Shown here piece by piece: positions 3,701 to 29,685 of a stretch of DNA of 32,000 nucleotides (the first letter of the stretch is position 1; each line of letters opens with the position of its first letter). Source of the DNA: Candidatus Saccharimonadota bacterium (GTDB lineage: Bacteria > Patescibacteriota > Gracilibacteria > UBA4473). The notes beneath the pieces are model-generated. The model was given only the letters and a program-made list of their open reading frames with translations, ran no database searches and was not told the DNA's origin. The translations under genes were made by a program, and so were the position numbers. The stretch spans positions 330,001 to 362,000 of the forward strand of contig JAUIFI010000001.1 in the NCBI GenBank assembly GCA_030429505.1, given 5' to 3'.

Positions 3701-3729
3701 TTGAATAAAAGCCTTTTTTGATGTATAAT
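3701..3729 (+). promoter_or_regulatory. Sigma70-type promoter: TTGAAT - 17 bp - TATAAT
   Basis: TTGAAT lies at 3701-3706 and TATAAT at 3724-3729, with an exact 17-bp spacer ending in a T-tract (cctttttt). ATG 3736 begins 7 nt after the -10 box. Confidence 0.5.
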
Positions 3730-3735
3730 GAAAAG

Positions 3736-4272
3736 ATGAGGTCAAAATCCAAAAAGAAACCAGAAGAAGTCACAGAAAACCTCCATATGGTCCCTAATAT
3801 TTTTTCCTGGGAAGCATATGATTACCATCCTCACACTCGCGGTTGGGTATGGATTTTTATTTTTTCTCTTATCGTTTTTGGGAGCGCTATAGCAGTGCTT
3901 CTTTGGGGAGGGCATTCAGGGAGTGATTGGTTTATGGCTTTCACTTTCTTTTTAGCAGCAGCAGCTTATTTTTGGACACATCGAAAAGGTGAGTCAATGC
4001 ATCAAGTTCAGATATTTCCCAAAGCGCTTGTAGTTGATAACCAAATATACCCCCTCAAGGAGTTTGAAGGATATTGGTTTGTTTATAATGAAACTGCGTC
4101 AATCATCCATTTCCAAATCATAGATAAACGAAGAGACCGAAAACTCTCTTTACAAATGGGAAATCAAAAACCACAAACACTCAGGAAATATCTTGCTAAG
4201 ACTAATCTACCAGAGCTTACCGAGAAAAAAGAAAGTTTGCTCGACCTTTGGATCAGAGCCTTAAAACTATAA
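3736..4272 (+). CDS. Small two-TM membrane protein, function unknown
   Basis: The ORF track starts at TTG 3718. I prefer in-frame ATG 3736 because the promoter at 3701-3729 lies inside the longer version. A FSWEAYDY motif is followed by two hydrophobic helices (WVWIFIFSLIVFGSAIAVLLW; WFMAFTFFLAAAAYFW) and a soluble C-terminal domain of about 100 aa. Its stop is 4 nt before the next ATG. Confidence 0.7.
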   Translation: MRSKSKKKPEEVTENLHMVPNIFSWEAYDYHPHTRGWVWIFIFSLIVFGSAIAVLLWGGHSGSDWFMAFTFFLAAAAYFWTHRKGESMHQVQIFPKALVVDNQIYPLKEFEGYWFVYNETASIIHFQIIDKRRDRKLSLQMGNQKPQTLRKYLAKTNLPELTEKKESLLDLWIRALKL

Positions 4273-9094: not shown

Positions 9095-12000
9095 ATGAAG
9101 TTTTTTCTGAATCACCTACGAGCGTTCCAAAATGCCAAAGGAAACCAATTTCTTTGGCACAGTGATGATGATCCCGAGGAGCGAATGGAAGTTGGTGGAA
9201 GTTCGGAAAATTCAAGATCAAAAGAATCTAGTAGTGGGAAAAAAATAGAAGAAGTCCAGAAAGAAGTACAAGAAGCTATCGAAAGAGCACAAAGAACTCA
9301 GGGAAGAAATACTGAGGATTTGTATGACAAGCTCAAGAAAGAAACAGACAGTAGATTACAAACTGCTACAGAAAAATTTGAGAAGCTCTTTGAATCTGCA
9401 AAAGCCCAGATGATAGAAGAGCAGAAAGGAAAAGAACTTACTCCAGAACAAGAGCAAATACTTCAGGAATTAGAAACGAGGTTTCGTGAAGCACACGAAA
9501 TAGCCAGTGAAGTAGTCATCGGTATTTTAGAAACAGGAAAAAGTACAAACGAACAATACAAAAAAGTTTCTCAGAAGGTATCAGCGTTAAACAAACCGCT
9601 TTTAAAGGTATACCAAGAATTGTTAAAAAATGAAAATGACCAAGAAGCGATTGCCACAGCAATAAAAAAACTCTCCAACCTTTGGAATAAAAATAAAAGA
9701 GATCTCAGAAGTGGAATTCGAAACATAAAAGAGATTCTTGATTCTCAAAAACAATTTCATCCAAGATTTAACCAAATGTGGAGTGAAGAACTCTTGGGAG
9801 AAATTGATAATATAGAAGAATCTATTGTTAATCTTACATTAGCCGAAGAGAGGGAAGAAATAATTCCCACTAACTCAAAAGATATAAAAAACTTGTATCG
9901 AAGTTTATTGAATCTCCAAAATCGAAGTGACTTCCTTGGTGGAGGGTTTAATTACCTTCGTGAAAAAATACTTCAAAAACTTGATGATTTTACTAAAAAA
10001 ATAAGTCAGCAAGTAGGGGATATGCCCGAGGTCGGAAATGCACCAGATCATATAAGCCTTAGTATAGTTCCGGCAACTCCCTCAACAACATTTGCCAGTT
10101 TAGCAAATGAAAGCTTGGATCAGCAGGAGCAAGAATTGGATGAAATAAAAGAGGATTTTCAAAAAAACTATCAAGAGGTAGCTCCATTTCTTCCTTTGAT
10201 AGTAAAAGATTTAGATCAAGCCATAAAAGCTTATCGAAGAATAGGAATTCAAGAATTAGGAGGGAGGAGGCAACGAGCGATAGAACAAAAATTAAAAGAA
10301 ATATATGTAATAGACGACCCCTATCTTTTGAATGATAATTTGCCAAAAGTTTTTCAGGCATGGCAACAAATAGATCAAGAGTTTAAAGATGGAGAAGAGC
10401 ATATAGAAGATATAGATTTCTATAAAGAACACCTTCGGGACTTGAAGGCTTTTAAAAATACACTTGTTGAAGCTGGAGAGGATTTAAAAGCAAGAGAAGA
10501 AGCTCTAGAAGCTGAAGCTAGAAAAGGGATGCAAGAGATTGAGAAAGGAAAGGGAAAAAATGAACAAACTTCTACTCATACAGCAGCCGGAATTACCCCG
10601 GCAGTTATCGGTACGGGGGGGGCGGAAGTAAGAGGAACTCCGGAGGGAGGAAGAGACGAAAGTGAAGAAAATGAAAATCAAGAAGAAGATCCGGAAGGAC
10701 AAGATAATCTTGAGCATGAAGAACAGGAAGGTGGCGAACAAGCACCAGTCCAGAATAATCAAAATAACGGTAATAATGATCAACCCGCAGTTGAGGAGGC
10801 TAACGAAGACCAAGAAAATAACGAGCTAGAACCAGATCAGGAAGATGGAGCAGGTGGGAATGATCAAGAGCCAGTACCTCAAAATCCAGAAAATCAAAAT
10901 GATGAAATTGCTCAGGCTGAGATTGAAGCAGGAAAACAAGAATTCCAGAGAGATTTTATCACCTATAAGGAAATTATTGAGCAAGTAGAAGAACACGTTG
11001 AAAAAGATTTACAAGCACTCGCCAATGGTCATTTAACCGAAGAAATCATTCAAGAAAAGTATGGAGTGGAAAGTTCTGAACAGATGAGACAGGTATGGGA
11101 AACTCAAGCTGGATTTAAACAGACTTTTACCGATATAAATCAAGAGTTTGAGGAAGGACGAGCTACTATGGAAAGACTTGGGCACTATAGAGGTCAACAA
11201 AGGCGAATGAAAAGGTATACAGAAAAAGCAGGAAGATTTTTAGAAGAGATGAGAGAATACGAACAACCTTCAAGAGAAGCGTTGAAAAATTTAGAATTTT
11301 TGGGAAACGAAGATGATCCCCCTGATCCAGAGAAGTTTAAAAAGAATTTTAAAGCCAAACAAAAACAATTTAAACAAAGGATAAAACGCTATAATCATCA
11401 TATTAAAAAAGCTCAAAGACATTTAAATGAAGATAAAAATCTTAAAGACAAAGATTTCAAGGAAAAATATGGAGCCAGTAGAGAAGAAATCCATGGAAAA
11501 CTTCAAGGACACCGGAATTTAAGAGAGGTATTTGATTCTGTTTGGAAACCTTTTAAAAAAGGAGATTTTGCTGATAAATGGCTCGAAAAATATAGGCAAA
11601 GTGAGACAGCTGCTTTGAGAGATTTTCGTGATTGGGGCGCAATTGCCAAAGCTTCTGATGAAATAGAGAAAAAAACAAAAGAACTTATGGGATGGAGTCA
11701 AGATTATGAGAACAAGAAAAAAAACATTGCAGAGAGAATAAAAGATCAACTCAAAACCTTTGATTTTAAATTTATCAGCATCAGTGGATTGATGTTGCTT
11801 GGAAAGCGTATTGGAGAGAAGTGGAAACGTGAGACAGAAGATCAGTTCAAAGCAGAATCAGAATCTCTTGGAAGCATTATACCCGGGAGTATTGGTCAAG
11901 AGTTTGAATTACTTGAAGGGAAACGTCATAGCGAAAACGTAAAAGAATTTGAAGGCTTATATGAGGGCAACGAAATCTGGCAAATATTCGACACCATGAA

Positions 12001-13396
12001 GAAATCAAAAGACAAAGATGAGATCATGGCATGTATTAATTTAGCGAATAAAAAAGGCGGTCTAAAGTGGGATAGTATTCCCATCTGGCAAGCACTCAAT
12101 AACCTTAAAACTGGAGTACGTTTCAATGTTCCTCATGATATAGATCACCTTTCATATGCAGAAATTGCAGATAAAGCTAGACGAGCTATTACCCAGGCAT
12201 GGTGGCCGGGAGTGTTTGAAGAATGGGATCGGAGTTTGGCCGGAAACCAAGAATCTATGGAAAAAAACTATGCCCGAAGCTTTGAGCGTGATATTGAAAA
12301 TATTCCCGGAAAAATTGCAGAAATGTTACGTGATTGGAGAAGTGGAAATACAGACCAACTCCATCCAGCAAAATTCCTTTATTACATTAAAAATGGATTT
12401 AAACGGGGAAAATCAGCCGAAGATTTTGGAGTGAGATATTATTTTCTTATTCAAGGAGTCAGTGCTAAAAATCCTCAAGGTGACACACTCTTATCACAAG
12501 AGACCTTTAAAGAACTTACCAAGGGAGAATACTATGCAGAAATGCCACATACAGCCTTTTTTGTAGATAAAAAGTCAAAGAAAAAAGACGGGAAAATCGA
12601 TCCAGTAGAAGGTATTGTGCGTCGATGGAATCTAAACGATTATCGTATTTGGGCACAAGAAATGGGAGATGCTGGCGGTACTTTTGACGTGAAACAAGAA
12701 GAATTAAAAAGAAGAATTCGTGATTTTTTCTATCAAAACATGAATATGTCAGAGAAAGGACGAGCACAAGCACGTTCAAATAGTAAGCAAGTAGATGGAG
12801 ATGATGGTTACATGGATTTCTGCGCCTTTGATAAAGACAAAACCGAACTTGAATTGCAAACTACACCACAAGGTCCAAAGCGTCCTAAAGAATATTGGGA
12901 ATCACAACTAAGGAGTTTTGACCCTTTTATAGAATCCATGTACGCTTATATGCAAGAAGGCGAGTCACGGTATGGAAATAGGCAATCATGGAGGGAAGAA
13001 AAAAATAACACCTTACGCTTTATCGGGGAAAGGTTGGAAAATGCTCTTATTGTTATCCATACAATTCAAGGAAACTATAGACCAAAAAAGCAAAGCTTAG
13101 TATCAGACAAACCTGTTAAAGGAAAAGAAGACCTCTATACATTTCTTAATCTTATGTTTGATTTAACGGCACAAGATCCAGATACCATTAGATATAGAGA
13201 TATTGTGAGAAATCCAAATATTAAAAATAATCAAAACTTGCAATCTCTCAATGCAGATTTTTTAGGAGGACCCAAAAAAGTAGGAAGGCAATTTATCACA
13301 GCTGAGGGAGAGGGGAAAAAGAAATATTTTTCAAACCCAGCAATCATAGAAGCAACACTCAATGCCTATATGCAAAGAAAACAAGCGAGAGCATAA
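9095..13396 (+). CDS. 1433-aa coiled-coil/acidic protein with a Trp-rich C-terminal domain, function unknown
   Basis: Long intact ORF with no signal peptide and no convincing TM. The N-terminal 880 aa or so are highly charged, with heptad-like helices. There is an 84-aa D/E/N/Q-only insert and three divergent copies of a module of about 135 aa. The C-terminal 550 aa or so look globular and aromatic-rich. No Walker A or HExxH motifs found. Confidence 0.8.
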   Translation: MKFFLNHLRAFQNAKGNQFLWHSDDDPEERMEVGGSSENSRSKESSSGKKIEEVQKEVQEAIERAQRTQGRNTEDLYDKLKKETDSRLQTATEKFEKLFESAKAQMIEEQKGKELTPEQEQILQELETRFREAHEIASEVVIGILETGKSTNEQYKKVSQKVSALNKPLLKVYQELLKNENDQEAIATAIKKLSNLWNKNKRDLRSGIRNIKEILDSQKQFHPRFNQMWSEELLGEIDNIEESIVNLTLAEEREEIIPTNSKDIKNLYRSLLNLQNRSDFLGGGFNYLREKILQKLDDFTKKISQQVGDMPEVGNAPDHISLSIVPATPSTTFASLANESLDQQEQELDEIKEDFQKNYQEVAPFLPLIVKDLDQAIKAYRRIGIQELGGRRQRAIEQKLKEIYVIDDPYLLNDNLPKVFQAWQQIDQEFKDGEEHIEDIDFYKEHLRDLKAFKNTLVEAGEDLKAREEALEAEARKGMQEIEKGKGKNEQTSTHTAAGITPAVIGTGGAEVRGTPEGGRDESEENENQEEDPEGQDNLEHEEQEGGEQAPVQNNQNNGNNDQPAVEEANEDQENNELEPDQEDGAGGNDQEPVPQNPENQNDEIAQAEIEAGKQEFQRDFITYKEIIEQVEEHVEKDLQALANGHLTEEIIQEKYGVESSEQMRQVWETQAGFKQTFTDINQEFEEGRATMERLGHYRGQQRRMKRYTEKAGRFLEEMREYEQPSREALKNLEFLGNEDDPPDPEKFKKNFKAKQKQFKQRIKRYNHHIKKAQRHLNEDKNLKDKDFKEKYGASREEIHGKLQGHRNLREVFDSVWKPFKKGDFADKWLEKYRQSETAALRDFRDWGAIAKASDEIEKKTKELMGWSQDYENKKKNIAERIKDQLKTFDFKFISISGLMLLGKRIGEKWKRETEDQFKAESESLGSIIPGSIGQEFELLEGKRHSENVKEFEGLYEGNEIWQIFDTMKKSKDKDEIMACINLANKKGGLKWDSIPIWQALNNLKTGVRFNVPHDIDHLSYAEIADKARRAITQAWWPGVFEEWDRSLAGNQESMEKNYARSFERDIENIPGKIAEMLRDWRSGNTDQLHPAKFLYYIKNGFKRGKSAEDFGVRYYFLIQGVSAKNPQGDTLLSQETFKELTKGEYYAEMPHTAFFVDKKSKKKDGKIDPVEGIVRRWNLNDYRIWAQEMGDAGGTFDVKQEELKRRIRDFFYQNMNMSEKGRAQARSNSKQVDGDDGYMDFCAFDKDKTELELQTTPQGPKRPKEYWESQLRSFDPFIESMYAYMQEGESRYGNRQSWREEKNNTLRFIGERLENALIVIHTIQGNYRPKKQSLVSDKPVKGKEDLYTFLNLMFDLTAQDPDTIRYRDIVRNPNIKNNQNLQSLNADFLGGPKKVGRQFITAEGEGKKKYFSNPAIIEATLNAYMQRKQARA
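10655..10906 (+). other. Acidic low-complexity insert (aa 521-604 of the 1433-aa protein)
   Basis: DESEENENQEEDPEGQDNLEHEEQEGGEQAPVQNNQNNGNNDQPAVEEANEDQENNELEPDQEDGAGGNDQEPVPQNPENQNDE. I find no Lys or Arg in the whole stretch. Confidence 0.85.
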
Positions 13397-13478: not shown

Positions 13479-13571
13479 ATGTTTTTCTTCATACAAAAAT
13501 CAAACAAAAAAAAATCATTCCTCATATGGTTGATTTTGGTACTCATCTTTTTTTCCGTAAGCACGCAAGCT
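13479..13571 (+). other. Sec-type signal peptide of the giant protein (aa 1-31)
   Basis: MFFFIQKSNKKKSFLIWLILVLIFFSVSTQA|FF has a basic n-region (KKK), a hydrophobic core of about 15 aa, and small residues at -3/-1 (T-Q-A). Confidence 0.7.
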
Positions 13572-16500
13572 TTTTTTGATTTTTTCGATGATAATCTTCC
13601 CCACACTCCCGAAGTCAAGCGCACTCCTGTGGTTTCCCTGCTTGTCGAAGAAAGTTTGCTGGACAATAAAGACCTAAAAGAACGCATCGGGCAATACGCA
13701 CTCAATGTCCAAAAAAAAATAAACGGACAAGTCGTACAACTACCAGTTCCAAAAGATGCATCTCCTCTCGATATTTTTGAGGGAAATGCTCATTTGTATT
13801 TCTCAGGGTTCAATGCTGATGGAAAATCACAATTAGTTGGAACAGTTCTTATTGGAGATATCCCACTTCCTATCGTAGAAAAAAATGGGGCACTTTGGCC
13901 TACCATCTTTCCTTATACTGATATAGAAAGACCTTCATATCTTTGGAATGAAGCCAGTCAGCGGTTTATTTATAATCCCAAAGGAGACCACGAGCCAGAA
14001 ATTTGGCACGGACATATTTACTCCGACACCAATGGGGGAAAAAATATTACTGATCAAGAAGAGGCGGATGAGTTGAGAGATAAAGAACTCATTGCTTACT
14101 TTGATCAAAACCACCTAGTACATACTGGCACTACAACCTATGGAAAAAGAGTTTTATTTGTAGACCTCCTCCTTCAGAAAGAAGGACTCAATACCACCCT
14201 TAGATCTTACTATAATACTTGGGTAAACAATATCGAAGATATTCTCTATTCAAGGTTCAATAAACATTGGGCTCAATCAATCTTGGCAACAGAAAATTTA
14301 GAAAATACAGTTCCTTGGGGGCTTTTATCCGAATCTGCTAAACCTAAAAGTATTCCTAATAACTCAGAAAAAACATCAGGATTGCCGGATATTCAAAGCA
14401 AGCTCCTGATTGAAAAATTTATCAGACCTTATAGTAGTGCTTGGGCAGATTATTTAGATATTCTTTATGAAAGGATCAAAAAAGCTGGTCGTTGGGATGC
14501 TACTCAGATTGATACCACCATTTCATTGGTGACTCGTAAAGATATGGCTTCGGCAATCCTTCTCAAGGGGATGAATGACACCTTGGAAGCAAAGCTGAAT
14601 GAACTTCTCTCTTCAAACAACGTTGCCGCAAGTATCTCTGTTCCTAAAATTACCGATGACTATTTTACCGGAGGAGCTCAACTAGAAGGACAAACTTTGT
14701 ATTGGAATGGTGTAGACAGAACAAATCTTACTACCGAAAATTGTTCACTTCTTCGTGGTGTTACTAAAGACAACACTCATCCTTATGCCCAACTCGTAGA
14801 GACCAATAGAACATTTAATATTGATACGGTAGATTCTTGCGCTTCAGGATACGCAGGTTGTTGTGCCGATAACCTGGAAATTGACTCATCGACTCTTCGA
14901 TATTCTATAAAAACGTCTGGATCTCCCCCAAATATTGTCTCAGCTTGCTCAGTCACACAGGCAACTTTACCAATATTTGATCTAGCTGGAACACGAGAAG
15001 TCACATCTGGAAATCAAGGAGCTTCTGGATGTATTGACATAATAAATACGGATAACGAAGATCCAGATAGAACACACCGTTTTGACTCTCTTATGATTCA
15101 TAATGAGCCGAGAGTTACCACTATCGATACTCAAGTACAATCTATGAAAACCATCGCCATACCGGTCGATGATCCTCGTGGGTTTTCATTTTATGATCAC
15201 TCGAAGACATTCTACCGTCTTAGTTATTTCAATCTATTTGATATGAGAGATTATTTCAAATCAAGCTCGGATGTTACGAGACAGACCCTGCTGAAGCAAG
15301 AAATTCTCAACCAACTCGGAACCAAAATTCAAGAAATCAATACCATTATAAATACTGCCAATACTGCCAGCAATGCCAGACTTGCCGCAGATAGACTTCT
15401 CAATTGGCCTGGTAGCCCAGCTGGTGGAACCTGTAGCTATAGTCAAATAGAAACCAATCCCGATAGCTTTACTACAAAAATCGAATGGACAGAAACTTGT
15501 GTCGCTCCTATAAGCTCGGAAAAAATTGTTCGATACTATGAGACTGCTACAACTCTCTCTGAAGACGTTTTGAAAAATCTTATCCAGTCACTCGATATTG
15601 ATAAAGTGACCGAAAGTATCGTGTGGCTCGACAAAGATTTAAGTAACAAAAATAGAACTGTGCTTGAGAAGGCCTTAAGCACAACCTCTGTTTTTCAAGA
15701 TTTCTTCTTTGATGCCAGTTTCAATGGCTATGAATTTGTCGAAATTATTGGAGAAAAAGCCGAAGACAAAATCCAAGAAAACAAGGGCATCCTCTCTACC
15801 TTTGAACAAGGAGAAAGCGAAGATGGAGATTATGAATTATCAAAAAGAGAATCAAACAAGTTTCAAACGAAAGAGAAAAAAAGAAATACATTTTTAGGGT
15901 TTGATTTTAAAAAAATATTTGTCAAGACTGATGAAAATACTCCAGACAAAAAAATTATCCATGAAGACGTCAATGGAGAAACAAAAATCACAACAAAAAA
16001 TAATGCAGCATCTAGTGAAAGTTTTGTACGATCTATCCAAGTCATTCCTTCAGAAATTAAGCAATCTTCAACCGATTTAACACCCATTGATGTCGAAATA
16101 ACTCTCAAAGATAAAAACGACCATTTTCTATCATCAGACTTTTCTTCACAAGTAACACTCCAGTTTTCCAGCAATGATGCCAGCCGTTTTTTTACAATTC
16201 TCCCCGCAAAAACTCAAACTGTAACCAAAGGAAAAGCTACTTTTCAAATTCTTCCCAAAGGCGAAACATTTGGAGGCAAACTGACACTATCCGCGACAGT
16301 AGGAAAAAGATCCTCAGACCCAGTTCCAATTACCTTAACACCATTTTCACTATTGACAAATATTTCAAGAAAAGAAATTCCTGTAAAAAATAGTGAAGGA
16401 TCACTCATAACTGTAAAAGTTCAAGATCAAAACCAAAATCTTTCTAGGGTAAAGGATAATACCTTAATACGATTTACATCCGATTGGGGGAATTTCTCAA

Positions 16501-19500
16501 AAAATGGTTATACTCGAATTCAAGATGGAAAAGCTTCTATCCAATTTTATCCTGGAACAAAGGCTGGTCAGGCAAAAATCAGAATCGAAACACTAGATGA
16601 AACTGTAGCTCCGCAATTTGAAAATCTCATCATTCTTCCTGAAAAGCCTCTTCGTCTTACCATAAAAACAGCTTCTAATTTTCTTATTCCAGAAGGAGAT
16701 TTTATTCCAGTTGAGGCTATTCTTACTGATCTATACGGTAACAAAGTTTCAACAGAAATATACGAATTTATCTGGAAGACAGAAAATGCAAACACAAAAC
16801 CACTGCTTAACAAAGATTCATCAACCCTTCTCATCCAACCATCTGGTACTAATTTAGACGTGTTAGCAGAAGTATATGTCAAAAGTATCCCTTCACTTCG
16901 AGCTGAAAAAAGGTTTCCTACCACCATCAATCCGAAGATAGATATCCAAGCCTCAAGTACAGAAATTCTAGCCGGATCTGACGCCCCAATTTCATTATTG
17001 TTGACTACAAAAACCAGTCAAAATCAAAAAATAAACACTAATTTTACTGCAGATATATTTATATCTCCAGCAGATTTAGGAGAAATTGTACCCTCCATTA
17101 CATTCGAAAATGGACAAGCACTTTTAGAATTTTTCCCCGGAACCAAAAGTCGACAAGGGCAAATACAAATCCAAATTCCCGGGTTTGAAAAAACCATATT
17201 TGACTTAGAAATATTGCCCGAAAAAGCTGAAAAAATAAATTTGTCCGTCGATAAAAATACCATCAATAGAACCGATGAAACAGATTTGAATCTTACCATC
17301 GAAATTGTTGATCAGTTTGGAAACATTGCCACAGATTTTAAAGGAGAAGTAGCACTCGCTTTTAATGAGGCTGAAATTAGAACTGAAAGTCAAAATGACG
17401 TATTAGTCACACTAGGTGTCTTTGGGGAAGTGAGTAATCAAAAAGCCTATATAGATGAAAATATTAATACTACTGTAGGGAGTCAAGCTTCAGACAAAGA
17501 TCTACTTACCATTAGCGGAGGGAATCTGGTGCGACCTGAAAAAGGGAAGAAAACTGTCGAAGTAACATCATCGACCAAAACAGGACAAGTCTTTCTCACG
17601 GCTAAGTCAGAAGGACTAATCCCAGGGGTCGTAGAATTTGAAGTCATCGATTACTTGACTGTATCCGATATAGAGACACTCAATCCAAAATCACTCTTAA
17701 CCCTTTTTCTCAACTTTGAAGCAGGGGATAAGTCTACTGAAAAAAGCTTTGCCAATCGTTATCTCATGTCAGGAAATTCACAAGCCGTTGGTGCGCTCCT
17801 CAATGATCCAGATCCTTTTGCAAGAAAAGGCTTTATCGACACCAGTGGTGAAGTTTCAAAAGATTTAAAAATACATATCGAACCAGGACCTTTTCTGGAA
17901 ATGAAACTACAAAATTCTGATAAAATTCAAACTACCACTCGACTTAATGTCGTTCCCAACGCTCCTCTTGCCCTCGTTACAGAAAAGCAAAATAAACCTG
18001 GAGTTTATTTTCTCATTGATCCTAAACAAAAAGATGATTTTACTAAAAAAGAAAACACTATTCTTTTTCAAGAGAAACCACTAATAACCCTGCAATCTAA
18101 CGGTGGTATAACATTAGAAATCAGTAAGATTGAGCTCAAACCAACTCCTATTCATTCTCTCTTTGAATGGGATGTATTGATAGATGAAAAAACCCAAGCA
18201 AAATTTCTTATTATTCCTAGTTTTTCCACTATTACCGCCATTGATGATATCACAGAGAGTGGAACGAGACCTGGTATTTGGGTTCAGTCCCTTTCTTCTG
18301 AATATCAAATTGTTCCTGGATTGACTGGGAAAAGTACGAATGAGGATTTAGGCGTCTTTTTTGTTTCTACCACGACCAAAGAAGATACCGAGCGTTTACT
18401 TGGCTCACCACGTCACTCTATTGAAGATATACAAATAAATGAGGATTTGGTTTGGGAGGGACTTTGGAAGCCAGGTACATTTTTGGGAGCTGGAAATTCT
18501 ATCGGACAGTCAAATCTATGGGGAAGTAGTGATGCTTTTATTCTTCTAGGAGATCCATCACTCAATATCGCAAATGATAACACTCGTTCTTCAATTGGTA
18601 TTCAGCCAGATATCGGGAAACAAATCTGGAAAAGTCCAGTAGGAAACATTGATCAGATCTTAGTACTAGACATTAATGGCGACGGCAATGGCGATATCCT
18701 TAATCGAGTTGGCAAAGAAGTCTATGCTCTCTATCAAGACGATGAACAGCTCGATAATTTTCGTTCTATAGGTCCTATTCTCAGATTCTCCGATGGAGTT
18801 AAAACTTTGGCGAGTTTTGATAATGATTTCGATGGTTTTTGGGAACTCTTACAACTCAACGAAGCCGGACAAACTTTTATCCACAAAAATACCAATGGAA
18901 CATTCCATCGACAAAGCATTGACCTAGGCATTCCCAACACAATTCTTCGCATTGAAGATGCAAAGCTTAATACAGATGAATTTCGAGACTTATTTGTACT
19001 AGATGACAAAAACTGCACCTGGAAAATACTCGGGCAAAAGAATGGATTCAATAAACCACAAAACTTAGCTTGCCTGAATCCTGATTTCGTAAAAATAGAA
19101 GAAACTTTTACGGTGGCTGATAATCAGGATCCCAATGATCCGTATTTTACTCCAACCAAATTCAGCCATCTCAATCACTGGCTGGTTTCCTTTAATGGCA
19201 TTGAAAACGATTTGAAAGACGATCCTGACCAAATAAGATACCTGACTACTTTTGAAACAGAACGCACTCCTTTTGTACCTTTTTCCAAAAATAAACAAAT
19301 CGATACAAACCTCAAAATTACCCAGATCCAAGAAAAAGAAGATCCCAAACTCCAAGAAGGAGATACTATAGATATAGAACTCGAAATTGAATCTCAACAG
19401 AAGTTAACCAATGTACAATTTATTCCTTCTAAATTTGAAGGTTTTGCATTTGTAGAAAACTCTCTTCAATGTGATGTTTGCACAAAACCCATAGCATTAA

Positions 19501-22500
19501 AACCTCGTACTCCCGAAGGACTCTGGTGGGCATGGGATATACAGATTCCTGCCAAAGAAAAAATAACCATCACGTGGAAGATGAAGGTATCAGACATCCC
19601 TCCTATTCGTTATTCCATAGATGATTATTACGGAAAAGATGATGTCGACGATATTGTTATTCCTTGGCAAACAAGTAACGACCAGCAAATTCTCAGGCTT
19701 CCTTCCAATAGCAATCCTGCGCATAACTTGGAAATAGAAAATATTCCGGTAGTAGCTCCTATAGACCAAACTTCATTTCTCGCTAGCCAAACCGACACGC
19801 AATTATCAAATGGAATTACCTCTGGTATTAAAGCTGACAGTGATTCGGATGGATATCCTAATCTGTATGATGGACCAGGTATTGGGGATGATATGGATTT
19901 CACAGTCAATGGCATATCCAATGCCATATCTGAACACATGAACACACTCAATAACGAAAAAGAAAGTACAGAATGTCCTCAAAATGATGGACTCCCACTT
20001 ATTCCAGAAGTTTTCTTAGCACCTGGATTTACACCCACCTATACCCCCCCTATTACCGTTCCTGGAGGATTTGATGGAGGAACACCAGCTTTTTGGATAC
20101 CACCATCACCCATTTCCAGCGTGCAAACTTCTGCTATGCGATTTTACGTCATGCCCTCAACTACAGGGAAGGTCTCTTTTGCGACCTGCTTTGGAAGTTA
20201 TCCTTCGAGTATAGTTTCGCCCTTATGGAATGCAAATTGCTTTACTATGGCTCCACCAAATTTACCAAAAAAATGTATGGGACAAATAGCTCCCACTATA
20301 AAAAAGCTCAAAGAAAATCTTTTCTCATATAGTGATCAGCCTTGGAATCAAGGCAGTATGGAGCCAAAAGCTGATCCTACTATTACAAATCAGCAAATTT
20401 CCGGTGTTGACGTTATCAGTACATGGTTGCAAGATCAGTACCGAGAATTTGGAAATAGTTCGCTACCATCATTGAATGTTAAGTCACCAGATCTCAATCT
20501 TGAAAAATCAGATCAAGATCAAGATGTTATTCAGGCTTTATCTGAATCGCCATTTGTAAACCTTCAACAAGAGCAAAGATTAATTCCATATGCAAATGTC
20601 TCAGAAGAGTCACTAGAAAAAATGAAGAAAGATTATGCCGAATGGAACGATCATTTTCAATCATGGGAAAAAGACGGACAAGAAAAAATTAGTAGCTTTG
20701 AACAAGATATAAAAACTGCTGAAAGTGAAGGAAAAGATACGAGCAATGAAAGAGAAATTTTAGTGAATGCCAAAGCTCACTTAAAAGAAGGACAAAATAC
20801 CGCCTTTGCCGTAGAGCAGAAAATGAAAACAGTTGAAAATTATAAAGATCAGCAAGATGTTCTACTTACCATTCCTTCACAAGTCACAGCTATCTTGGAA
20901 GAAGTCCTTCAACATGCCAACACCATGTCTGAATACTTCAAAAGCGTGAATGATTCCGTCACCAGTTCATTGAACGAATGGGAAACTTTTCGAGACACAT
21001 CTGAACCCATTGTAAAATCGTGGGAAGCTGTGCCAGACACCTTAAAATCATTTATCAAGAGTTATCCAAGTTCACAAGTCGATCGAGGAAGTATGCAGGA
21101 ATGGCTTCTTCGCATTTTTCTAAGCGGTGTGGAACTTCCTATTATCGGAGCTCCTAATCTCCCGAATGTAAATCTTGATATATCAGAAATGACTTTTGGC
21201 TTCGATATTATTGCTCCACAAATTCAGTTTGAACCGGTAGATATGGCGATTTTTGAAATACCACCAAAACTTGAGCCATTCCCTCGTTTGCCAGATATAA
21301 ATGATTCTGAGTCCTTTACTCCTCATTCTTCAAACATCGGAGACACCCTCCTCACTACCACCATTAGTCAAGAATCAGCTATTCCCAACGTTGATAGTCC
21401 TCGAGCTTTCCCCACTCAAAAATCAGCCTTTCCCACTACATCAGTTGATTTTCAGCCCATGCCACCCGTCCAAAAACTACCAGAGATGCCCTCTATTGAT
21501 TTCAACGTTCAAGTACCAGAATTAGAGCTTCCCTCAATTCCTGAAATTCCAAGTCCACCAGCTCCACCGAACGCTCCTGATGTTCCGAGTCCGACAGCTT
21601 CTCCAAATACTCCCAATATATCCGACATCCCAGACTCACCAAACACTCCTGACATTCCTGATGCTCCAAGTGTACCAGAAATGCCAAGTATTCCTGATGT
21701 CTTGAGTCCTATTGAAACCATTATGGAAATTCCAAAAGCTCTTCTCCCACTCATGGGGCTACTGAAAACAGGTATCGCTCCAGTTCCCGAATGGTATCTA
21801 AAAGGATATACGACTCAGCTCACTAATCGTACTGACATTATGGGACTTGATTTTGCTCCGGGAGCCTTATCTCCAGTTCCCGCAAAAACGACCACTCCTC
21901 CAGAAATCAACATAAAAGTAGAGCATGATTTTGTTCCCGAACTGAAACAACTGAGTGACACGGTAAACATTTTAGAAGAAACATTTCGATGCGTTGTAGA
22001 AGGTATTCGTAGTTCGACAAAAGGCGACCAAGATTCTTCTGAGTGTTCAACTCAGGGAGAGCCTATCAGTCAAAAAAAATCTCGAAGTTTTGCCTTCCTT
22101 GAATTACTCAAACGAGGTCCCAACATTATTACTTCTCTTGGAACAGCCAAACTAAGAAACTGGCTCGCCACCAACGTTGCTATAGACGAAATTGCGCAAA
22201 GCCTTCCAAGCAATTTCAATGCCACCACCTTTGAAACAACACGAAATGCAACTCCGAAAAAAAATGACGGTATCTATTATTATGATGCAAATACAGACAC
22301 CGCAGAACTCATTACTAAATTTCCTATGACACCACCAATGACAGCTACTTTTGCTGATCTCGGTACTGATGGAAATGAAGAAATTATCTATAGTTTAGGC
22401 GAAGAGCTCTACTTAAAGTATCGAGTTGTTCCCGATGCGAAAGTACGTGAAGACGAAGAAAAAGATGAATGGGAAGCTTTATTTGATGATTTTATCCAGT

Positions 22501-24353
22501 GGTCATTTGAAGAATGGAAAGAAAAATTCTCTCCCACCCAAAAACTCATCTCCGATACCAACGTTGACGGTTCAAATATAAATTTTGAACGTCTATCAGA
22601 AAATATATCCTATTTTGAATGGGTGCTATCAGAACGTCCTGATAATATTTTCGAAATAGGTGATAAAGCAGAAGACAGAAAGTCAAACCAGTGGCAACGC
22701 ACAGCCTTCATTATTCGAGAAAAACCACCTCTCTACGAAATAAGACCCAAGACATCACAGGTGTCTACCATCAAAGGATCTCCCATCCTCTATGCTGCTC
22801 CCGAAGAAGAAGTACCCAAAATGTCCCAGTCAGACTGCGAAGATCCGGATATAATAAAGCCGTTCTATCCCACAGAATCTATTTTAGTTGGAGTAGGACG
22901 ATCATCACGAATGGAAATTAGAGTCCCTCCTCGCGCTGGACAAGAAGAAGAATTTCGAGAAATCGTGCTTCGAAGTGGTGAAGAGACGGTAGTCGAATAC
23001 GCAGAGATTTGCCTCACACGTGGGAAAATAAAACGCATCTCTACCCAAGATCAAGTCAAAGGAAATGCCAGAAAAGGTATCTATCTTCCCTCAGGTTCTC
23101 GTTTCGAACTTGGTCCCAAAGAACGCATTGATTTGACCATCTTTGATGGTACAACCATTACTATCGAAGGCAATGAAACTTATGAAATTTATTATTTTGA
23201 AACTCAAGAAGAGGCTATTGATCACTTTAAGTATTTACAAAGTGGAAATTACTATGGATTTCTCATGGCACAAAAAGGGGATCAAAAAAGCTATTTTCAT
23301 CCATCATTTCTGCATGATCCGCAAACACAAGCCGATACGAGACCTCCAGAAATAAAAATATCAGGGGGAGTGACAATAGACACAACTCTTTTTCAAGAGA
23401 TTCCTATTGACGCTTCAGCTACGATTGATAATGATCGAATACAACGTGTCTGGTGGGATACAGACTCTACAAAAGATAGTGATGGAGATGGGAATTTTAC
23501 CAATGATGTAGATTTTCCTCTCGCCAATGAGTTAGAAAAATATACCCCCAGACAACTCCTCAAAATATCACTTCCAGGATACGAAAATCCCGGTAATTAT
23601 ATTATCACTCTCAATGTCGAAGATCCGGCTCAAAATCAAACTTCACAAGAAATAAAGATTCAAGCCAAAGTTCCATTACTCAAGCTCACAGAAAGCTCTA
23701 TTCGAGATCAAAAAATCAAAGGAAACGTTGAAAGTGGAGAAAGCAATGTTCCTATTCATATCATGCGAAAACGGTCTGGGGAACCCTGGGAAACCCTCAC
23801 CAAAAAACCAATTCTATCTCAACCCAATGGACACTTTGAGACATCACGTCTTGGGGTATCTGAAGGACTAAAAATATACGATTCAAATGAAAAACTCATC
23901 GCAGAAATTCTTCCAAATGGTCGTCCCATCATAAAAGATTCTCAATACGGCTTCATCATAGAATCCGCAACAGGAGAAAACCCTTTTCAAATCAAGATTC
24001 GTGATCGTCGAAATAATCCTATTGCTTTTGTTTCTTTTCAAAGAGAAAAACAAATTCCACTCAAAACAAAAGATACAAATCCCGATGATTCTTTTATCTT
24101 TCAAAAATCAAGCAGCCAAAAGCAAGCGTTCCAAGATGCCATTGCCCTCGTCGATGTATCGAAAAATAAAACGGTTGGTATTCTTGATCAAAGAGGGGAC
24201 TTTTATGTTCTGCCACCTGAACGTATGTTTTTCCGGATAAAAAATGGAATGGATGGAACAACCCCACTAGTCTTCGAAATATTTTCTGCAGACAAAAAAA
24301 AGCGAGGAGAATTTTCTACCACCAGCGCTTCAAAAATATTTTTATATAAATAA
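13479..24353 (+). CDS. 3624-aa secreted giant multidomain surface/adhesin-like protein
   Basis: Single uninterrupted 10.9-kb ORF with an N-terminal signal peptide. It contains five Ig-like repeats, FG-GAP-like Ca-binding blades, a DSDSDGYPNLYDG Ca-binding motif, a PKD-like domain and a PxxPxx repeat. Many Cys residues sit close together in small clusters. There is no C-terminal LPXTG motif or TM anchor. Stop is TAA, followed by a strong hairpin. Confidence 0.9.
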   Translation: MFFFIQKSNKKKSFLIWLILVLIFFSVSTQAFFDFFDDNLPHTPEVKRTPVVSLLVEESLLDNKDLKERIGQYALNVQKKINGQVVQLPVPKDASPLDIFEGNAHLYFSGFNADGKSQLVGTVLIGDIPLPIVEKNGALWPTIFPYTDIERPSYLWNEASQRFIYNPKGDHEPEIWHGHIYSDTNGGKNITDQEEADELRDKELIAYFDQNHLVHTGTTTYGKRVLFVDLLLQKEGLNTTLRSYYNTWVNNIEDILYSRFNKHWAQSILATENLENTVPWGLLSESAKPKSIPNNSEKTSGLPDIQSKLLIEKFIRPYSSAWADYLDILYERIKKAGRWDATQIDTTISLVTRKDMASAILLKGMNDTLEAKLNELLSSNNVAASISVPKITDDYFTGGAQLEGQTLYWNGVDRTNLTTENCSLLRGVTKDNTHPYAQLVETNRTFNIDTVDSCASGYAGCCADNLEIDSSTLRYSIKTSGSPPNIVSACSVTQATLPIFDLAGTREVTSGNQGASGCIDIINTDNEDPDRTHRFDSLMIHNEPRVTTIDTQVQSMKTIAIPVDDPRGFSFYDHSKTFYRLSYFNLFDMRDYFKSSSDVTRQTLLKQEILNQLGTKIQEINTIINTANTASNARLAADRLLNWPGSPAGGTCSYSQIETNPDSFTTKIEWTETCVAPISSEKIVRYYETATTLSEDVLKNLIQSLDIDKVTESIVWLDKDLSNKNRTVLEKALSTTSVFQDFFFDASFNGYEFVEIIGEKAEDKIQENKGILSTFEQGESEDGDYELSKRESNKFQTKEKKRNTFLGFDFKKIFVKTDENTPDKKIIHEDVNGETKITTKNNAASSESFVRSIQVIPSEIKQSSTDLTPIDVEITLKDKNDHFLSSDFSSQVTLQFSSNDASRFFTILPAKTQTVTKGKATFQILPKGETFGGKLTLSATVGKRSSDPVPITLTPFSLLTNISRKEIPVKNSEGSLITVKVQDQNQNLSRVKDNTLIRFTSDWGNFSKNGYTRIQDGKASIQFYPGTKAGQAKIRIETLDETVAPQFENLIILPEKPLRLTIKTASNFLIPEGDFIPVEAILTDLYGNKVSTEIYEFIWKTENANTKPLLNKDSSTLLIQPSGTNLDVLAEVYVKSIPSLRAEKRFPTTINPKIDIQASSTEILAGSDAPISLLLTTKTSQNQKINTNFTADIFISPADLGEIVPSITFENGQALLEFFPGTKSRQGQIQIQIPGFEKTIFDLEILPEKAEKINLSVDKNTINRTDETDLNLTIEIVDQFGNIATDFKGEVALAFNEAEIRTESQNDVLVTLGVFGEVSNQKAYIDENINTTVGSQASDKDLLTISGGNLVRPEKGKKTVEVTSSTKTGQVFLTAKSEGLIPGVVEFEVIDYLTVSDIETLNPKSLLTLFLNFEAGDKSTEKSFANRYLMSGNSQAVGALLNDPDPFARKGFIDTSGEVSKDLKIHIEPGPFLEMKLQNSDKIQTTTRLNVVPNAPLALVTEKQNKPGVYFLIDPKQKDDFTKKENTILFQEKPLITLQSNGGITLEISKIELKPTPIHSLFEWDVLIDEKTQAKFLIIPSFSTITAIDDITESGTRPGIWVQSLSSEYQIVPGLTGKSTNEDLGVFFVSTTTKEDTERLLGSPRHSIEDIQINEDLVWEGLWKPGTFLGAGNSIGQSNLWGSSDAFILLGDPSLNIANDNTRSSIGIQPDIGKQIWKSPVGNIDQILVLDINGDGNGDILNRVGKEVYALYQDDEQLDNFRSIGPILRFSDGVKTLASFDNDFDGFWELLQLNEAGQTFIHKNTNGTFHRQSIDLGIPNTILRIEDAKLNTDEFRDLFVLDDKNCTWKILGQKNGFNKPQNLACLNPDFVKIEETFTVADNQDPNDPYFTPTKFSHLNHWLVSFNGIENDLKDDPDQIRYLTTFETERTPFVPFSKNKQIDTNLKITQIQEKEDPKLQEGDTIDIELEIESQQKLTNVQFIPSKFEGFAFVENSLQCDVCTKPIALKPRTPEGLWWAWDIQIPAKEKITITWKMKVSDIPPIRYSIDDYYGKDDVDDIVIPWQTSNDQQILRLPSNSNPAHNLEIENIPVVAPIDQTSFLASQTDTQLSNGITSGIKADSDSDGYPNLYDGPGIGDDMDFTVNGISNAISEHMNTLNNEKESTECPQNDGLPLIPEVFLAPGFTPTYTPPITVPGGFDGGTPAFWIPPSPISSVQTSAMRFYVMPSTTGKVSFATCFGSYPSSIVSPLWNANCFTMAPPNLPKKCMGQIAPTIKKLKENLFSYSDQPWNQGSMEPKADPTITNQQISGVDVISTWLQDQYREFGNSSLPSLNVKSPDLNLEKSDQDQDVIQALSESPFVNLQQEQRLIPYANVSEESLEKMKKDYAEWNDHFQSWEKDGQEKISSFEQDIKTAESEGKDTSNEREILVNAKAHLKEGQNTAFAVEQKMKTVENYKDQQDVLLTIPSQVTAILEEVLQHANTMSEYFKSVNDSVTSSLNEWETFRDTSEPIVKSWEAVPDTLKSFIKSYPSSQVDRGSMQEWLLRIFLSGVELPIIGAPNLPNVNLDISEMTFGFDIIAPQIQFEPVDMAIFEIPPKLEPFPRLPDINDSESFTPHSSNIGDTLLTTTISQESAIPNVDSPRAFPTQKSAFPTTSVDFQPMPPVQKLPEMPSIDFNVQVPELELPSIPEIPSPPAPPNAPDVPSPTASPNTPNISDIPDSPNTPDIPDAPSVPEMPSIPDVLSPIETIMEIPKALLPLMGLLKTGIAPVPEWYLKGYTTQLTNRTDIMGLDFAPGALSPVPAKTTTPPEINIKVEHDFVPELKQLSDTVNILEETFRCVVEGIRSSTKGDQDSSECSTQGEPISQKKSRSFAFLELLKRGPNIITSLGTAKLRNWLATNVAIDEIAQSLPSNFNATTFETTRNATPKKNDGIYYYDANTDTAELITKFPMTPPMTATFADLGTDGNEEIIYSLGEELYLKYRVVPDAKVREDEEKDEWEALFDDFIQWSFEEWKEKFSPTQKLISDTNVDGSNINFERLSENISYFEWVLSERPDNIFEIGDKAEDRKSNQWQRTAFIIREKPPLYEIRPKTSQVSTIKGSPILYAAPEEEVPKMSQSDCEDPDIIKPFYPTESILVGVGRSSRMEIRVPPRAGQEEEFREIVLRSGEETVVEYAEICLTRGKIKRISTQDQVKGNARKGIYLPSGSRFELGPKERIDLTIFDGTTITIEGNETYEIYYFETQEEAIDHFKYLQSGNYYGFLMAQKGDQKSYFHPSFLHDPQTQADTRPPEIKISGGVTIDTTLFQEIPIDASATIDNDRIQRVWWDTDSTKDSDGDGNFTNDVDFPLANELEKYTPRQLLKISLPGYENPGNYIITLNVEDPAQNQTSQEIKIQAKVPLLKLTESSIRDQKIKGNVESGESNVPIHIMRKRSGEPWETLTKKPILSQPNGHFETSRLGVSEGLKIYDSNEKLIAEILPNGRPIIKDSQYGFIIESATGENPFQIKIRDRRNNPIAFVSFQREKQIPLKTKDTNPDDSFIFQKSSSQKQAFQDAIALVDVSKNKTVGILDQRGDFYVLPPERMFFRIKNGMDGTTPLVFEIFSADKKKRGEFSTTSASKIFLYK
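16032..17651 (+). other. Array of five bacterial Ig-like (Big_1/invasin-like) domains (aa 852-1391)
   Basis: Units of about 95-140 aa repeat the same signatures. One is G(K/Q)A..(F/L)..PG(T)K.GQ..I (KGKATFQILPKGETFGGKLTLSA; DGKASIQFYPGTKAGQAKIRI; NGQALLEFFPGTKSRQGQIQIQI; KGKKTVEVTSSTKTGQVFLTA). Others are L.D..GN (ILTDLYGNKV, IVDQFGNIAT) and ILPEK(P/A) linkers. Confidence 0.65.
18630..19049 (+). other. FG-GAP/VCBS-like repeats (putative beta-propeller blades)
   Basis: LVLDINGDGNGDIL has the DxNxDGxxD Ca-binding loop. FDNDFDGFWELL and NTDEFRDLFVLD follow at a spacing of about 45-55 aa. A further copy, FADLGTDGNEEIIY, lies near nt 22340-22400. Confidence 0.5.
19350..19595 (+). other. Possible DUF11/CARDB-like beta-sandwich
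   Basis: GDTIDIELEIESQQKLTNVQFIPSKFEGFAFVENS...GLWWAWDIQIPAKEKITITWKMKV follows the pattern G-D-x-I-x-hydrophobic ... W-x-I-x-I-x-A-x-E-x-I-T-I. This is a pattern-level resemblance only. Confidence 0.3.
21531..21710 (+). repeat. In-frame tandem repeat: 10 x 18 bp encoding hexapeptide P-x-x-P-x-x
   Basis: The units are PSIPEI PSPPAP PNAPDV PSPTAS PNTPNI SDIPDS PNTPDI PDAPSV PEMPSI PDVLSP, each 18 nt, starting at 21531 (codon 2685 of the giant ORF). An outlying PEMPSI unit at 21480-21497 uses different codons. Confidence 0.9.
23343..23669 (+). other. PKD-like domain near the C-terminus of the giant protein
   Basis: IPIDASATIDNDRIQRVWWDTDSTKDSDGDG...GNYIITLNVEDPAQNQTSQEIKIQ matches the PKD pattern (W-D-x-x-D-G core, G-x-Y-x-hydrophobic-T-L-x-V-x-D). 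Confidence 0.5.
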
Positions 24354-24398
24354 AACGCGTATCATGGTTCACATAGAAGAGGTGGTGATACGCGTTTT
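24352..24398 (+). terminator. Intrinsic terminator hairpin (possibly bidirectional) after the giant gene
   Basis: A perfect 13-bp inverted repeat, AAAACGCGTATCA (24352-24364) / TGATACGCGTTTT (24386-24398), encloses a 21-nt loop. The GC-rich core ACGCG pairs, and the right arm ends in TTTT. The left arm begins AAAA, so the minus-strand reading also ends in a U-run. Confidence 0.6.
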
Positions 24399-24820
24399 AA
24401 GCTATGAGAGCAAGTCCATAAAAGAACAAGCTCAATTGCGCTGACGAAGACGCAAGCTCCCCGATATTGTTAAGGACATTTGTTTCGAGCGGTCCCACGC
24501 TCTATTTGTTTGTGTTTGAAAAAAGTGATTCGGCTCGTCATGCCGAGAAATGGGGAGATAATTTCGATCTTTACACACGATAAACATGGTAAAAACCGAA
24601 AAACTCCACATAGAAATATATCGAAGAACTGTTTATTGTAGCACATATAAAATGAAAATACAAGAAAGAAAAAAGAGTTTTTTGGAAAAGATAAAACGGA
24701 AAAATTAGATCTTTTGCTGCTCAGATGTTAGGAGAAACAATTTATAGTTTTTCAAATGAACTCATGGAAAAGGTGGCGGATGTGCTTTACGGAAGTAATG
24801 TGGAAAATGATCAATAGAAA

Positions 24821-26580: not shown

Positions 26581-26624
26581 TATTCTAAAAGAGCTTTTAC
26601 GAAGAAGCAAAACAAAAATTTTCT

Positions 26625-26652
26625 TTGATTTTCTCTTTCCTTTTCCTAGACT
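26625..26652 (+). promoter_or_regulatory. Candidate gatB promoter: TTGATT - 16 bp - TAGACT in the pgk/gatB divergent region
   Basis: TTGATT lies at 26625-26630 and TAGACT at 26647-26652, about 25 nt before ATG 26678. The -10 box is weak. Confidence 0.25.
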
Positions 26653-26677
26653 AGGAGGGCATTTTTTAGCGACTTTT

Positions 26678-29388: not shown

Positions 29389-29685
29389 ATGACGTATTTA
29401 CAAGTTCGTATTTCTGATGAAGAAAAAGAAGCTGCTCGTCAGGTTTTAGACGACATGGGACTCAGTTTGTCAGCCGCAGTTAAAATTTTTCTTCGAAAAA
29501 CAGTTCAAGAACAAAAACTTCCTTTCGAAATATCAGCAAAACTCAATAAACCACTTTCCGTAAAAACAAAAGAAAAGACCAAAAAAGGAAAGTCAAAAGC
29601 ATTTGTTTCGAAAAAGAAAGAAGTCCAAATGCCAAGTGAGAGCAGGTTTACTAATTTTGCCAGTCGGGAGATTGAATCTGATTAA
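29389..29685 (+). CDS. RelB/DinJ-family antitoxin-like protein (ribbon-helix-helix) with a Lys-rich C-terminal tail
   Basis: MTYLQVRISDEEKEAARQVLDDMGLSLSAAVKIFLRKTVQEQKLPFEIS aligns by eye with the DinJ/RelB N-terminal domain (V/IR-I/LD..LK..A..VL..MGL..S.A...FL..V.....LPF). The C-terminal 45 aa are KT-rich. No toxin ORF is adjacent. Confidence 0.75.
   Translation: MTYLQVRISDEEKEAARQVLDDMGLSLSAAVKIFLRKTVQEQKLPFEISAKLNKPLSVKTKEKTKKGKSKAFVSKKKEVQMPSESRFTNFASREIESD

Follow-up and report, generated by a model that had tools for sequence, protein, structure and literature searches.

A giant Sec-exported protein of Gracilibacteria belongs to a lineage-wide family and is a candidate cell-surface fibre

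Introduction

The window analysed here is a 32,000-nucleotide (nt) stretch of the genome of a Candidatus Saccharimonadota bacterium (NCBI GenBank assembly GCA_030429505.1, contig JAUIFI010000001.1, positions 330,001 to 362,000 of the forward strand), which the Genome Taxonomy Database (GTDB) places in the Gracilibacteria (UBA4473). It harbours a gene for a single protein of 3624 amino acids (aa), hereafter the giant protein. The question raised by this locus is what a protein of such a size does for its bearer and how it is held there. Read from the DNA letters alone, an original prediction had described it as a secreted protein with a mosaic adhesin architecture and no recognisable anchor. 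The bacterium has a tiny genome and probably depends on a host. Evidence of a predatory or parasitic life as epibionts exists for few Patescibacteria, the Gracilibacteria and Absconditabacteria among them.

The giant protein is a member of a lineage-wide family with a fixed domain order, present in Gracilibacteria, "Peribacteria" and Absconditabacteria. The reading favoured here, to which a probability of roughly 0.55 is given, is that it would form a long surface fibre for cell contact, stabilised by calcium and held non-covalently. This reading is drawn from the sequence and from the searches and models built on it.

An intact gene for an exported protein

The open reading frame (ORF) of the giant gene is free of in-frame stop codons, whereas 177 and 280 stops interrupt the two alternative frames of this stretch, so the ORF is no chance product. 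Its base composition is even over the whole gene. An artefact of assembly or annotation, that is, a chimeric or falsely fused ORF, deserves practically no credence. The stop codon counts and the even composition speak against it, as do full-length, colinear homologues in more than 20 independent assemblies. An ORF broken in independent assemblies had been named as the sign of a chimera; with many independent full-length copies found instead, a chimera is ruled out. The gene takes up ~1% of its ~1.02-Mb contig, or ~2% together with four partner genes upstream. Its cost and its conservation across the lineage make a central role at the cell surface likely.

The N-terminus, MFFFIQKSNKKKSFLIWLILVLIFFSVSTQA followed by FF, is organised like a Sec signal peptide: a lysine-rich n-region is followed by an h-region of 16 residues and a T-Q-A cleavage motif. 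An AxA-type site is found at the same place in 17 of the 22 family N-termini inspected (VEA/A, AQA/L, SQA/F, ANA/F and others, with a slash at the cleavage site). On the Kyte-Doolittle scale, the signal peptide is the sole strongly hydrophobic segment of the giant protein. The description as a secreted protein of 3624 aa thus stands: the ORF is real, a Sec signal is present, and a family of full-length giants accompanies it.

Searches with the whole protein were less telling. Pfam gave just sub-threshold Ig-like matches, phmmer found no match among the PDB sequences, and the PHROGs and NCBIfam scans of the giant protein and its upstream partners returned nothing meaningful.

A lineage-wide family with a fixed domain order

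The homologue search returned 46 proteins, all between 3388 and 6066 aa long and named as Candidatus Gracilibacteria and Absconditabacteria. Several of these (P0002, P0004, P0020) are colinear with the giant protein over 99-100% of its length, at 28-37% identity, and the nearest relatives are 37-41% identical overall. The order of the modules is constant in alignments of 12 and of 46 sequences, and invariant residues are scattered along the entire length.

The family is defined by the N-terminal module of about 770 aa (N-module). Among 1.84 billion representatives, the N-module profile matched 745 clusters (50% identity) at an E-value (E) of 1e-3 or below, 353 of them at 1e-30 or below. Nearly all belong to proteins of 3000-5800 aa in which the module directly follows the signal peptide. 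The giant protein itself scores 1043 bits against this profile over aa 31-799. A scan of the GTDB species genomes with a single strict peptide pattern yielded 20 loci, each from a different assembly and each in a metagenome-assembled genome (MAG) of Gracilibacteria, "Peribacteria" or Patescibacteria.

The label of a mosaic adhesin is therefore only half appropriate. Ig-like, PKD-like and beta-sandwich folds are present, together with FG-GAP/VCBS-like blades and a putative CnaB/DUF11-like sandwich, as described below. These are fold types that typify bacterial adhesins and surface proteins, but the mosaic is not idiosyncratic, its order being fixed across lineages.

The missing anchor

No recognisable anchor had been noticed in the giant protein, and none was found. 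The Kyte-Doolittle scan past the signal peptide revealed no segment over the transmembrane cutoff, an LPXTG-like motif ([LN]Px[TSA][GAS]) occurs nowhere in the protein, and no hydrophobic segment precedes the C-terminal end, which reads ...SASKIFLYK. Pfam reports no sorting-tail domain, and a surface-layer (S-layer) homology domain (SLH, PF00395) was detected neither by Pfam nor by an SLH hidden Markov model (HMM) built from the family.

An internal transmembrane anchor at aa ~2745-2767 was considered and rejected. Homologues are hydrophobic there, but the giant protein remains below the cutoff and has Lys and Pro in this segment, which is why it is not counted as a transmembrane helix. The family consensus retains Lys residues at this place as well.

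The missing anchor is partly explained at the level of the family, in which sister clades end in SLH domains that the clade of the giant protein lacks. Strong SLH domains are found in distant members (P0027-P0037 and others), for instance in three stretches of P0037, which Pfam scores with an E-value of 1e-27. According to the alignment, the SLH domains and thrombospondin type 3 (TSP3) repeats sit in a C-terminal extension of about 400-700 aa past the last residue of the giant protein. The family-built SLH HMM matches 75 of 176 representatives, near the C-terminus and with two or three domains each, and leaves out the giant protein and its close relatives. Judging by this distribution, attachment to the cell wall belongs to the design of these surface proteins, and the clade of the giant protein does without the SLH device. 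A subgroup with members of 5000-5900 aa (P0035, P0080 and P0117, among others) has a second, internal SLH pair near aa 1500-1800 besides the C-terminal one.

The N-terminal module

The N-module is the most conserved part of the giant protein. Its AlphaFold model (predicted local distance difference test, pLDDT, 68.8; predicted template modelling score, pTM, 0.61) consists of an alpha/beta core, a Cys-rich insert of low confidence and a helix/sheet part. The alpha/beta look ascribed to this module from the letters agrees with the structure predicted over segment residues 19-360. The Cys-rich region that had been reported, a part of this module, also exists, although with six cysteines rather than seven; several of these are invariant among close homologues, and further cysteines lie outside the sub-region (C652, C674).

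The N-module has no adhesin-type fold and resembles nothing known. Pfam gave no match even at an E-value of 5, a 13-sequence profile found no match among the PDB sequences, and Foldseek, run with the model against the PDB and the viral structures of BFVD, returned nothing at an E-value of 0.001 or below. By eye, the likeness of aa 120-185 to the pattern LLIGD..IP...D..Y....D..E(I/V)(W/F).G had suggested a gingipain/C25-like domain, comparable to the gingipain N-subdomain. This candidate was rejected: hhalign assigned a probability of 0.2% to the pairing of the N-module profile with gingipain R2, whose sequence was checked against PDB 4IEF_B, and Pfam C25 does not match the giant protein.

These results bear on the possibility that the giant protein acts as an enzyme or effector, either released or displayed on the surface. 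In that case, the N-module or the Cys/Pro-rich and helical middle, as a hydrolase or a membrane-active device, would attack the envelope of the host, and the repeats would be a spacer. Invariant polar residues of the N-module (D148, E174, H177, D229, E253, R259, R338, D355, S537, H541, D564, R567, K724, E752) are what such a protein might have, and the lack of an anchor and the predatory or parasitic relatives fit as well. A preprint links giant genes to cell-wall degradation in other predatory bacteria. However, no enzyme family matches in Pfam, NCBIfam or the PDB sequences, the Foldseek matches to caspase-like structures (caspase-2) are insignificant (E 0.2-0.5), and the comparison with gingipain R failed. 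An effector is quite improbable on this evidence.

Shaft and C-terminal region

Most of the modules listed in the original prediction for the remainder of the protein were recovered (Table 1). An iterated family HMM found exactly the five Ig-like copies that had been counted, at aa 853-951, 961-1043, 1061-1124 (weak), 1154-1245 and 1253-1389. When aa 852-1400 were scanned alone, Pfam Invasin_D3 matched above its gathering cutoff of 33 bits (37.7 bits, E 3e-9). The FG-GAP-like blades, including the one placed near aa 2960, are likewise supported by a blade HMM, which detects three blades at aa 1716-1858 and a weak, isolated one at aa 2957-2978. Exact DxNxDGxxD calcium loops number two in the giant protein; an integrin-alpha-like propeller takes about seven such blades. 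Pfam FG-GAP_3 remains sub-threshold there (E 0.016) and reaches 27.8 bits (cutoff 26.9) at the aligned position of P0027.

For the possible DUF11-like sandwich, model matches come from relatives only. TIGR04226 (isopeptide-type fimbrial D2) matches P0037 with 37.6 bits (cutoff 30) and the DUF11 repeat model TIGR01451 matches P0034 weakly (16.9 bits, cutoff 24), both at positions aligned to aa 1944-2040, but the giant protein itself matched neither model in the NCBIfam scan. The thrombospondin-type-3-like calcium motif, ADSDSDGYPNLYDG, is present as described, and the family consensus contains DxDxDGxPD at this place.

For the central ~650 aa (aa 2140-2800), a profile search against the PDB gave no fold assignment. 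This region includes a conserved Cys/Pro-rich module in which C2166, C2237 and C2254 are invariant in both the 12- and the 46-sequence alignments. The charged coiled-coil stretch reported further on is helical and charged (31% of residues in the region 2371-2510), but a coiled coil as such is not confirmed: in the PDB, the middle-module profile matched coiled coils and helical bundles, none of them significantly. The PxxPxx repeat follows, its units being found where the table places the Pro-rich tract.

The beta-rich C-terminal region is confirmed, beta-sandwich domains being predicted for the last 600 aa. AlphaFold models aa 2905-3624 as a beta-sandwich string with a pLDDT of 77.9, rising to about 90 for aa 3014-3275. 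In Foldseek, it matches macroglobulin (MG) domains of alpha-2-macroglobulin and C3 and the strings of S-layer protein EA1, SbsB, SiiE, SraP and GhpA. The PKD-like domain within it is well founded: the family profile of this region matches the PKD domains of clostridial collagenases (E 1.9e-4), and Foldseek pairs it with the ColH PKD domain at a probability of 1.00 and a template modelling score (TM-score) of 0.72. Pfam PKD_4 on the giant protein is sub-threshold (17.6 bits, cutoff 27, E 0.004).

A structural role in the envelope, as an S-layer-like housekeeping scaffold and not a host adhesin, has to be weighed at this point. Such a protein would build or arrange the outer protein layer, with its head mediating self-assembly. 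An architecture fixed from end to end, a single copy of the giant per assembly across deep lineages and a head that is the most conserved part would suit such a scaffold. SLH, the hallmark of S-layer and wall-associated proteins, occurs in the 75 representatives mentioned above, and the Foldseek matches include EA1, SbsB and a Nitrosopumilus S-layer. Against this, the giant protein has no SLH domain, and its nearest relatives share just 37-41% of their residues with it. The Foldseek TM-scores of about 0.1 are those of generic beta-sandwich strings, and S-layer proteins of the giant's size are unusual. A scaffold consequently appears somewhat unlikely.

Table 1. Features of the giant gene and its upstream neighbours. 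Positions refer to the window and residues to the giant protein.
Feature	Residues (aa)	Position	Strand	Remarks
Giant gene, 3624 codons + TAA		13479..24353	+	ATG start, uninterrupted ORF
Sec signal peptide	1-31	13479..13571	+	predicted cleavage TQA/F; read from sequence
N-module, family-defining	32-800	13572..15878	+	alpha/beta part, Cys-rich insert, helix/sheet part
Cys-rich sub-region, 6 Cys	422-518	14742..15032	+	AlphaFold confidence low here
Five tandem Ig-like (Big/invasin-D3-like) domains	853-1389	16035..17645	+	
Three FG-GAP/VCBS-like Ca-binding blades	1716-1858	18624..19052	+	DINGDGNGD, DNDFDGFWE
DUF11/CnaB-like beta-sandwich	1944-2040	19308..19598	+	mapped from P0037 and P0034 matches
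TSP3-like acidic Ca motif	2119-2132	19833..19874	+	ADSDSDGYPNLYDG (DSDSDG); motif read
Conserved Cys/Pro-rich module	2166-2270	19974..20288	+	C..G.CGLP...APG...FR.Y.MPT.TG..G.A.C.G...NCF
Helical charged region	2300-2560	20376..21158	+	conserved Trp residues and C..C.VDRG motif
Pro-rich PxxPxx tract	2660-2741	21456..21701	+	family consensus LPxLPxLPxPP
Conserved moderately hydrophobic segment and motif	2745-2795	21711..21863	+	PVPEWYLK...QLTNRT
C-terminal array of beta-sandwich domains	3014-3624	22518..24350	+	
PKD-like domain	3289-3397	23343..23669	+	DSDGDG insert
184-aa small membrane protein		3718..4272	+	first of run; homologue at same position in L003
753-aa protein		4277..6538	+	two hydrophobic segments; homologue at same position in L003
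774-aa polytopic membrane protein		6643..8967	+	signal peptide, 6 or more hydrophobic segments
1433-aa charged protein		9095..13396	+	no transmembrane segment, 34% charged

Gene neighbourhood

The giant gene closes a run of genes on the same strand, beyond which lie the convergent genes ppa and pgk. The four genes upstream of it occur in the same order beside the giant orthologue of another MAG (L003), and the 184-, 753-, 774- and 1433-aa proteins match their counterparts there with BLASTP E-values of 8e-26, 2e-30, 8e-135 and 2e-51. By hydropathy, the 184-aa protein has at least one hydrophobic segment. The most constant neighbour of the giant is the 1433-aa protein, through its conserved C-terminal ~700 aa: eight other distinct MAG loci have a similar gene immediately before the giant, and a gene similar to that of the 774-aa protein is syntenic in five other distinct loci. 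None of the four upstream proteins has a match in Pfam, NCBIfam or PHROGs, PDB profile searches with the 774-aa protein and the C-terminus of the 1433-aa protein gave no match, and Pfam assigned a domain to none of 36 homologues of the 774-aa protein.

A universal partner set in the SLH-less clade was considered and rejected, since six SLH-less loci with 10 kb upstream (L007, L013, L017, L020, L022, L023) have other neighbours before the giant.

A bolder proposal is that the giant and the four upstream proteins together constitute a lineage-specific, envelope-spanning apparatus with which episymbiotic Gracilibacteria make contact or feed. The head, as a new fold, would engage or breach the host, and the SLH versions would be ancestral and simpler. 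The proposal is unlikely.

In the sister clade with SLH domains (L005 640-1158 and 19662-24272; L026 23032-28055; the P0034 locus), four genes for proteins with Sec signals come after the giant gene. Conservation of two of these secreted proteins, one of about 270 aa and the other of about 370-660 aa, reaches the SLH-less loci L004 and L016. The downstream accessory genes d2 and d3 are present in L004, L005, L016 and L026, and the window has no copy of them. A gene for a type IV pilin-like protein (GFTLIELL) lies upstream of the giant in two SLH-bearing loci, and one pilin-linked locus also carries T2SSE and T2SSF (PilB- and PilC-like) genes.

The pilin-like genes, in both cases directly upstream, invite the idea of a PilY1-like adhesin presented at the tip of a type IV pilus, all the more in the locus with T2SSE and T2SSF. 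Yet a prepilin motif is absent from every ORF of the window, and neither a pilin-like gene nor pilus machinery was found near the giant in the window or in any other locus examined as DNA. The four downstream genes of the pilin-linked loci encode Sec signal peptides, not prepilin signals, and the pilin-linked members also carry SLH anchors, which argues against display on a pilus. This explanation is very improbable.

A gap of 467 nt without ORFs (24354-24820) separates the giant gene from ppa. It contains terminator-like hairpins at 24487-24502 (+) and 24546-24530 (-), which are no commoner than in shuffled sequence, and the promoter and terminator scan as a whole gave counts no different from those of shuffles.

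Proposed role

According to the favoured reading of a calcium-stabilised surface fibre, the giant protein would be exported by Sec and its signal peptide cleaved off. The mature protein would be an extended fibre on the cell surface, with the 770-aa N-terminal head carried on a shaft. The shaft would comprise the five Ig-like domains, a partial calcium-binding FG-GAP/VCBS propeller, the CnaB/DUF11-like sandwich, the Cys/Pro-rich module, the helical region and a proline-rich spacer, and the last ~600 aa of the fibre would be beta-sandwich domains, including the PKD-like one. Because the sister clades have wall-binding SLH domains at the C-terminus, this end would lie next to the cell, with the head pointing outward.

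In the clade of the giant protein, retention would be non-covalent and could be mediated by the C-terminal beta-sandwich region, possibly also by the upstream membrane proteins (184, 753 and 774 aa) and the cytoplasmic 1433-aa protein. The fibre would probably serve contact with another cell or surface, the host or prey of these episymbiotic bacteria. An adhesin function is suggested by the domain types and by the lifestyle of the relatives, and a role in touching host cells is plausible.

Several observations weigh against this reading. The most conserved part of the protein is the head, the opposite of what is usual for the host-specific tip of an adhesin, and a domain order fixed from Gracilibacteria to Absconditabacteria is unusual for a fast-shuffling adhesin. 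A conserved head and a fixed architecture fit a structural or enzymatic core at least as well, and the S-layer scaffold and the effector are therefore kept as rivals. The partner genes are adjacent to the giant in a sub-clade only; as the other SLH-less members have other neighbours, retention through partners is weakly supported. The picture of an inward C-terminus and an outward N-terminus is made uncertain by the members with an internal SLH pair near aa 1600. Finally, about 40% of the protein, namely the N-module and aa 2140-2800, is without a fold assignment.

The giant protein is a genuine, large and conserved object, but nothing surprising has been demonstrated about its mechanism. What has been gained are handles for further work: a definition of the family through the N-module profile, a hypothesis on polarity from the C-terminal SLH domains, and candidate partner proteins. 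Both the N-module and the middle module represent sizeable pieces of protein "dark matter"; having hundreds of homologues, they lend themselves well to structure determination.

Other features of the window

The 14 ORFs of the window comprise 10,232 in-frame codons, none of them TGA, and each ORF ends with TAA or TAG. In the nearest relative (L001), two neighbouring genes have one in-frame table-11 stop each, the codon itself not having been read directly, and NCBI calls full-length products for both. Genetic code 25 (UGA = Gly) is probably in use in this organism, UGA being very rare. In at least one genome with a family member (L004), the giant gene ends with TGA, which indicates the standard code in that genome.

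There is an overlap of 134 nt between the longest-ORF calls of pgk (25414-26697, minus strand) and gatB (26564-28087, plus strand). As the Pfam domain of each starts 40-50 residues after the called start, both genes probably begin further downstream than called. An ORF for a RelB-family antitoxin (29389-29685, plus strand; Pfam E 6e-13) has no adjacent toxin ORF called; the gene after it, read from the other strand, is RNase H-like. Searches of the whole window for tRNA genes and Rfam families gave no match.

Comparison with known systems

Like the giant protein, the adhesins SiiE of Salmonella and those of the LapA/MpIBP type combine strings of Ig-like beta-sandwich domains with acidic calcium motifs, and the Foldseek matches of the C-terminal model include SiiE and a large adhesion protein extender. 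Adhesins of type I secretion systems, however, have a C-terminal secretion signal or RTX repeats and no Sec signal, whereas the giant protein starts with a Sec signal, and Pfam reports no RTX-type domain in it. They are also made of dozens of repeats; the giant protein has five, and most of its mass is unique, non-repetitive sequence.

Proteins of the invasin/intimin type share Invasin_D3/Big_1-like domains with aa 853-1389, but they have a beta-barrel anchor and a C-type-lectin tip, both of which the giant protein lacks. The envelope of Patescibacteria is Gram-positive-like. The grappling hook GhpA of Aureispira (PDB 9FLW), a giant surface protein of a contact-dependent predator, gave a weak Foldseek match (E 1.2e-3); this likeness is that of generic beta-sandwich domains (TM-score about 0.1), and there is no sequence relationship.

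The closest counterparts are the SLH-anchored members of the family itself. In P0037, P0027 and P0036, the N-module, the Ig-like domains, the FG-GAP blades, the middle region and the C-terminal beta-sandwich are colinear with those of the giant protein, and the difference lies in the extension beyond its end, with two or three SLH domains and TSP3 repeats.

Giant surface proteins of these bacteria have already been mentioned in passing, and the literature searched holds no description of the family, the N-module, the split into SLH and non-SLH members or the gene cluster. In a proteome study of groundwater Gracilibacteria, VCBS-repeat proteins were detected and classed under adhesion. For Vampirococcus lugosii, the fibrous, sticky surface and the attachment to the host were ascribed to giant membrane proteins, for which a part in recognising the host was proposed as well (Moreira et al. 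2021, PMC8080830). Its ten longest proteins include DUF11, integrin and PKD domains, which are not assigned to the largest of them, VAMP_16_20, a protein of 4163 aa listed as "hypothetical protein" (PMC8080830). The paper makes no mention of the N-module, a fixed architecture, the SLH split or the gene neighbourhood (PMC8080830). VAMP_16_20, compared by description only, comes from the same lineage group as the family described here, and its size is near that of the Absconditabacteria members (4165-4380 aa). Since the surface and the attachment of Vampirococcus are ascribed to giant proteins, a surface fibre fits the lifestyle of the only relatives that have been studied.

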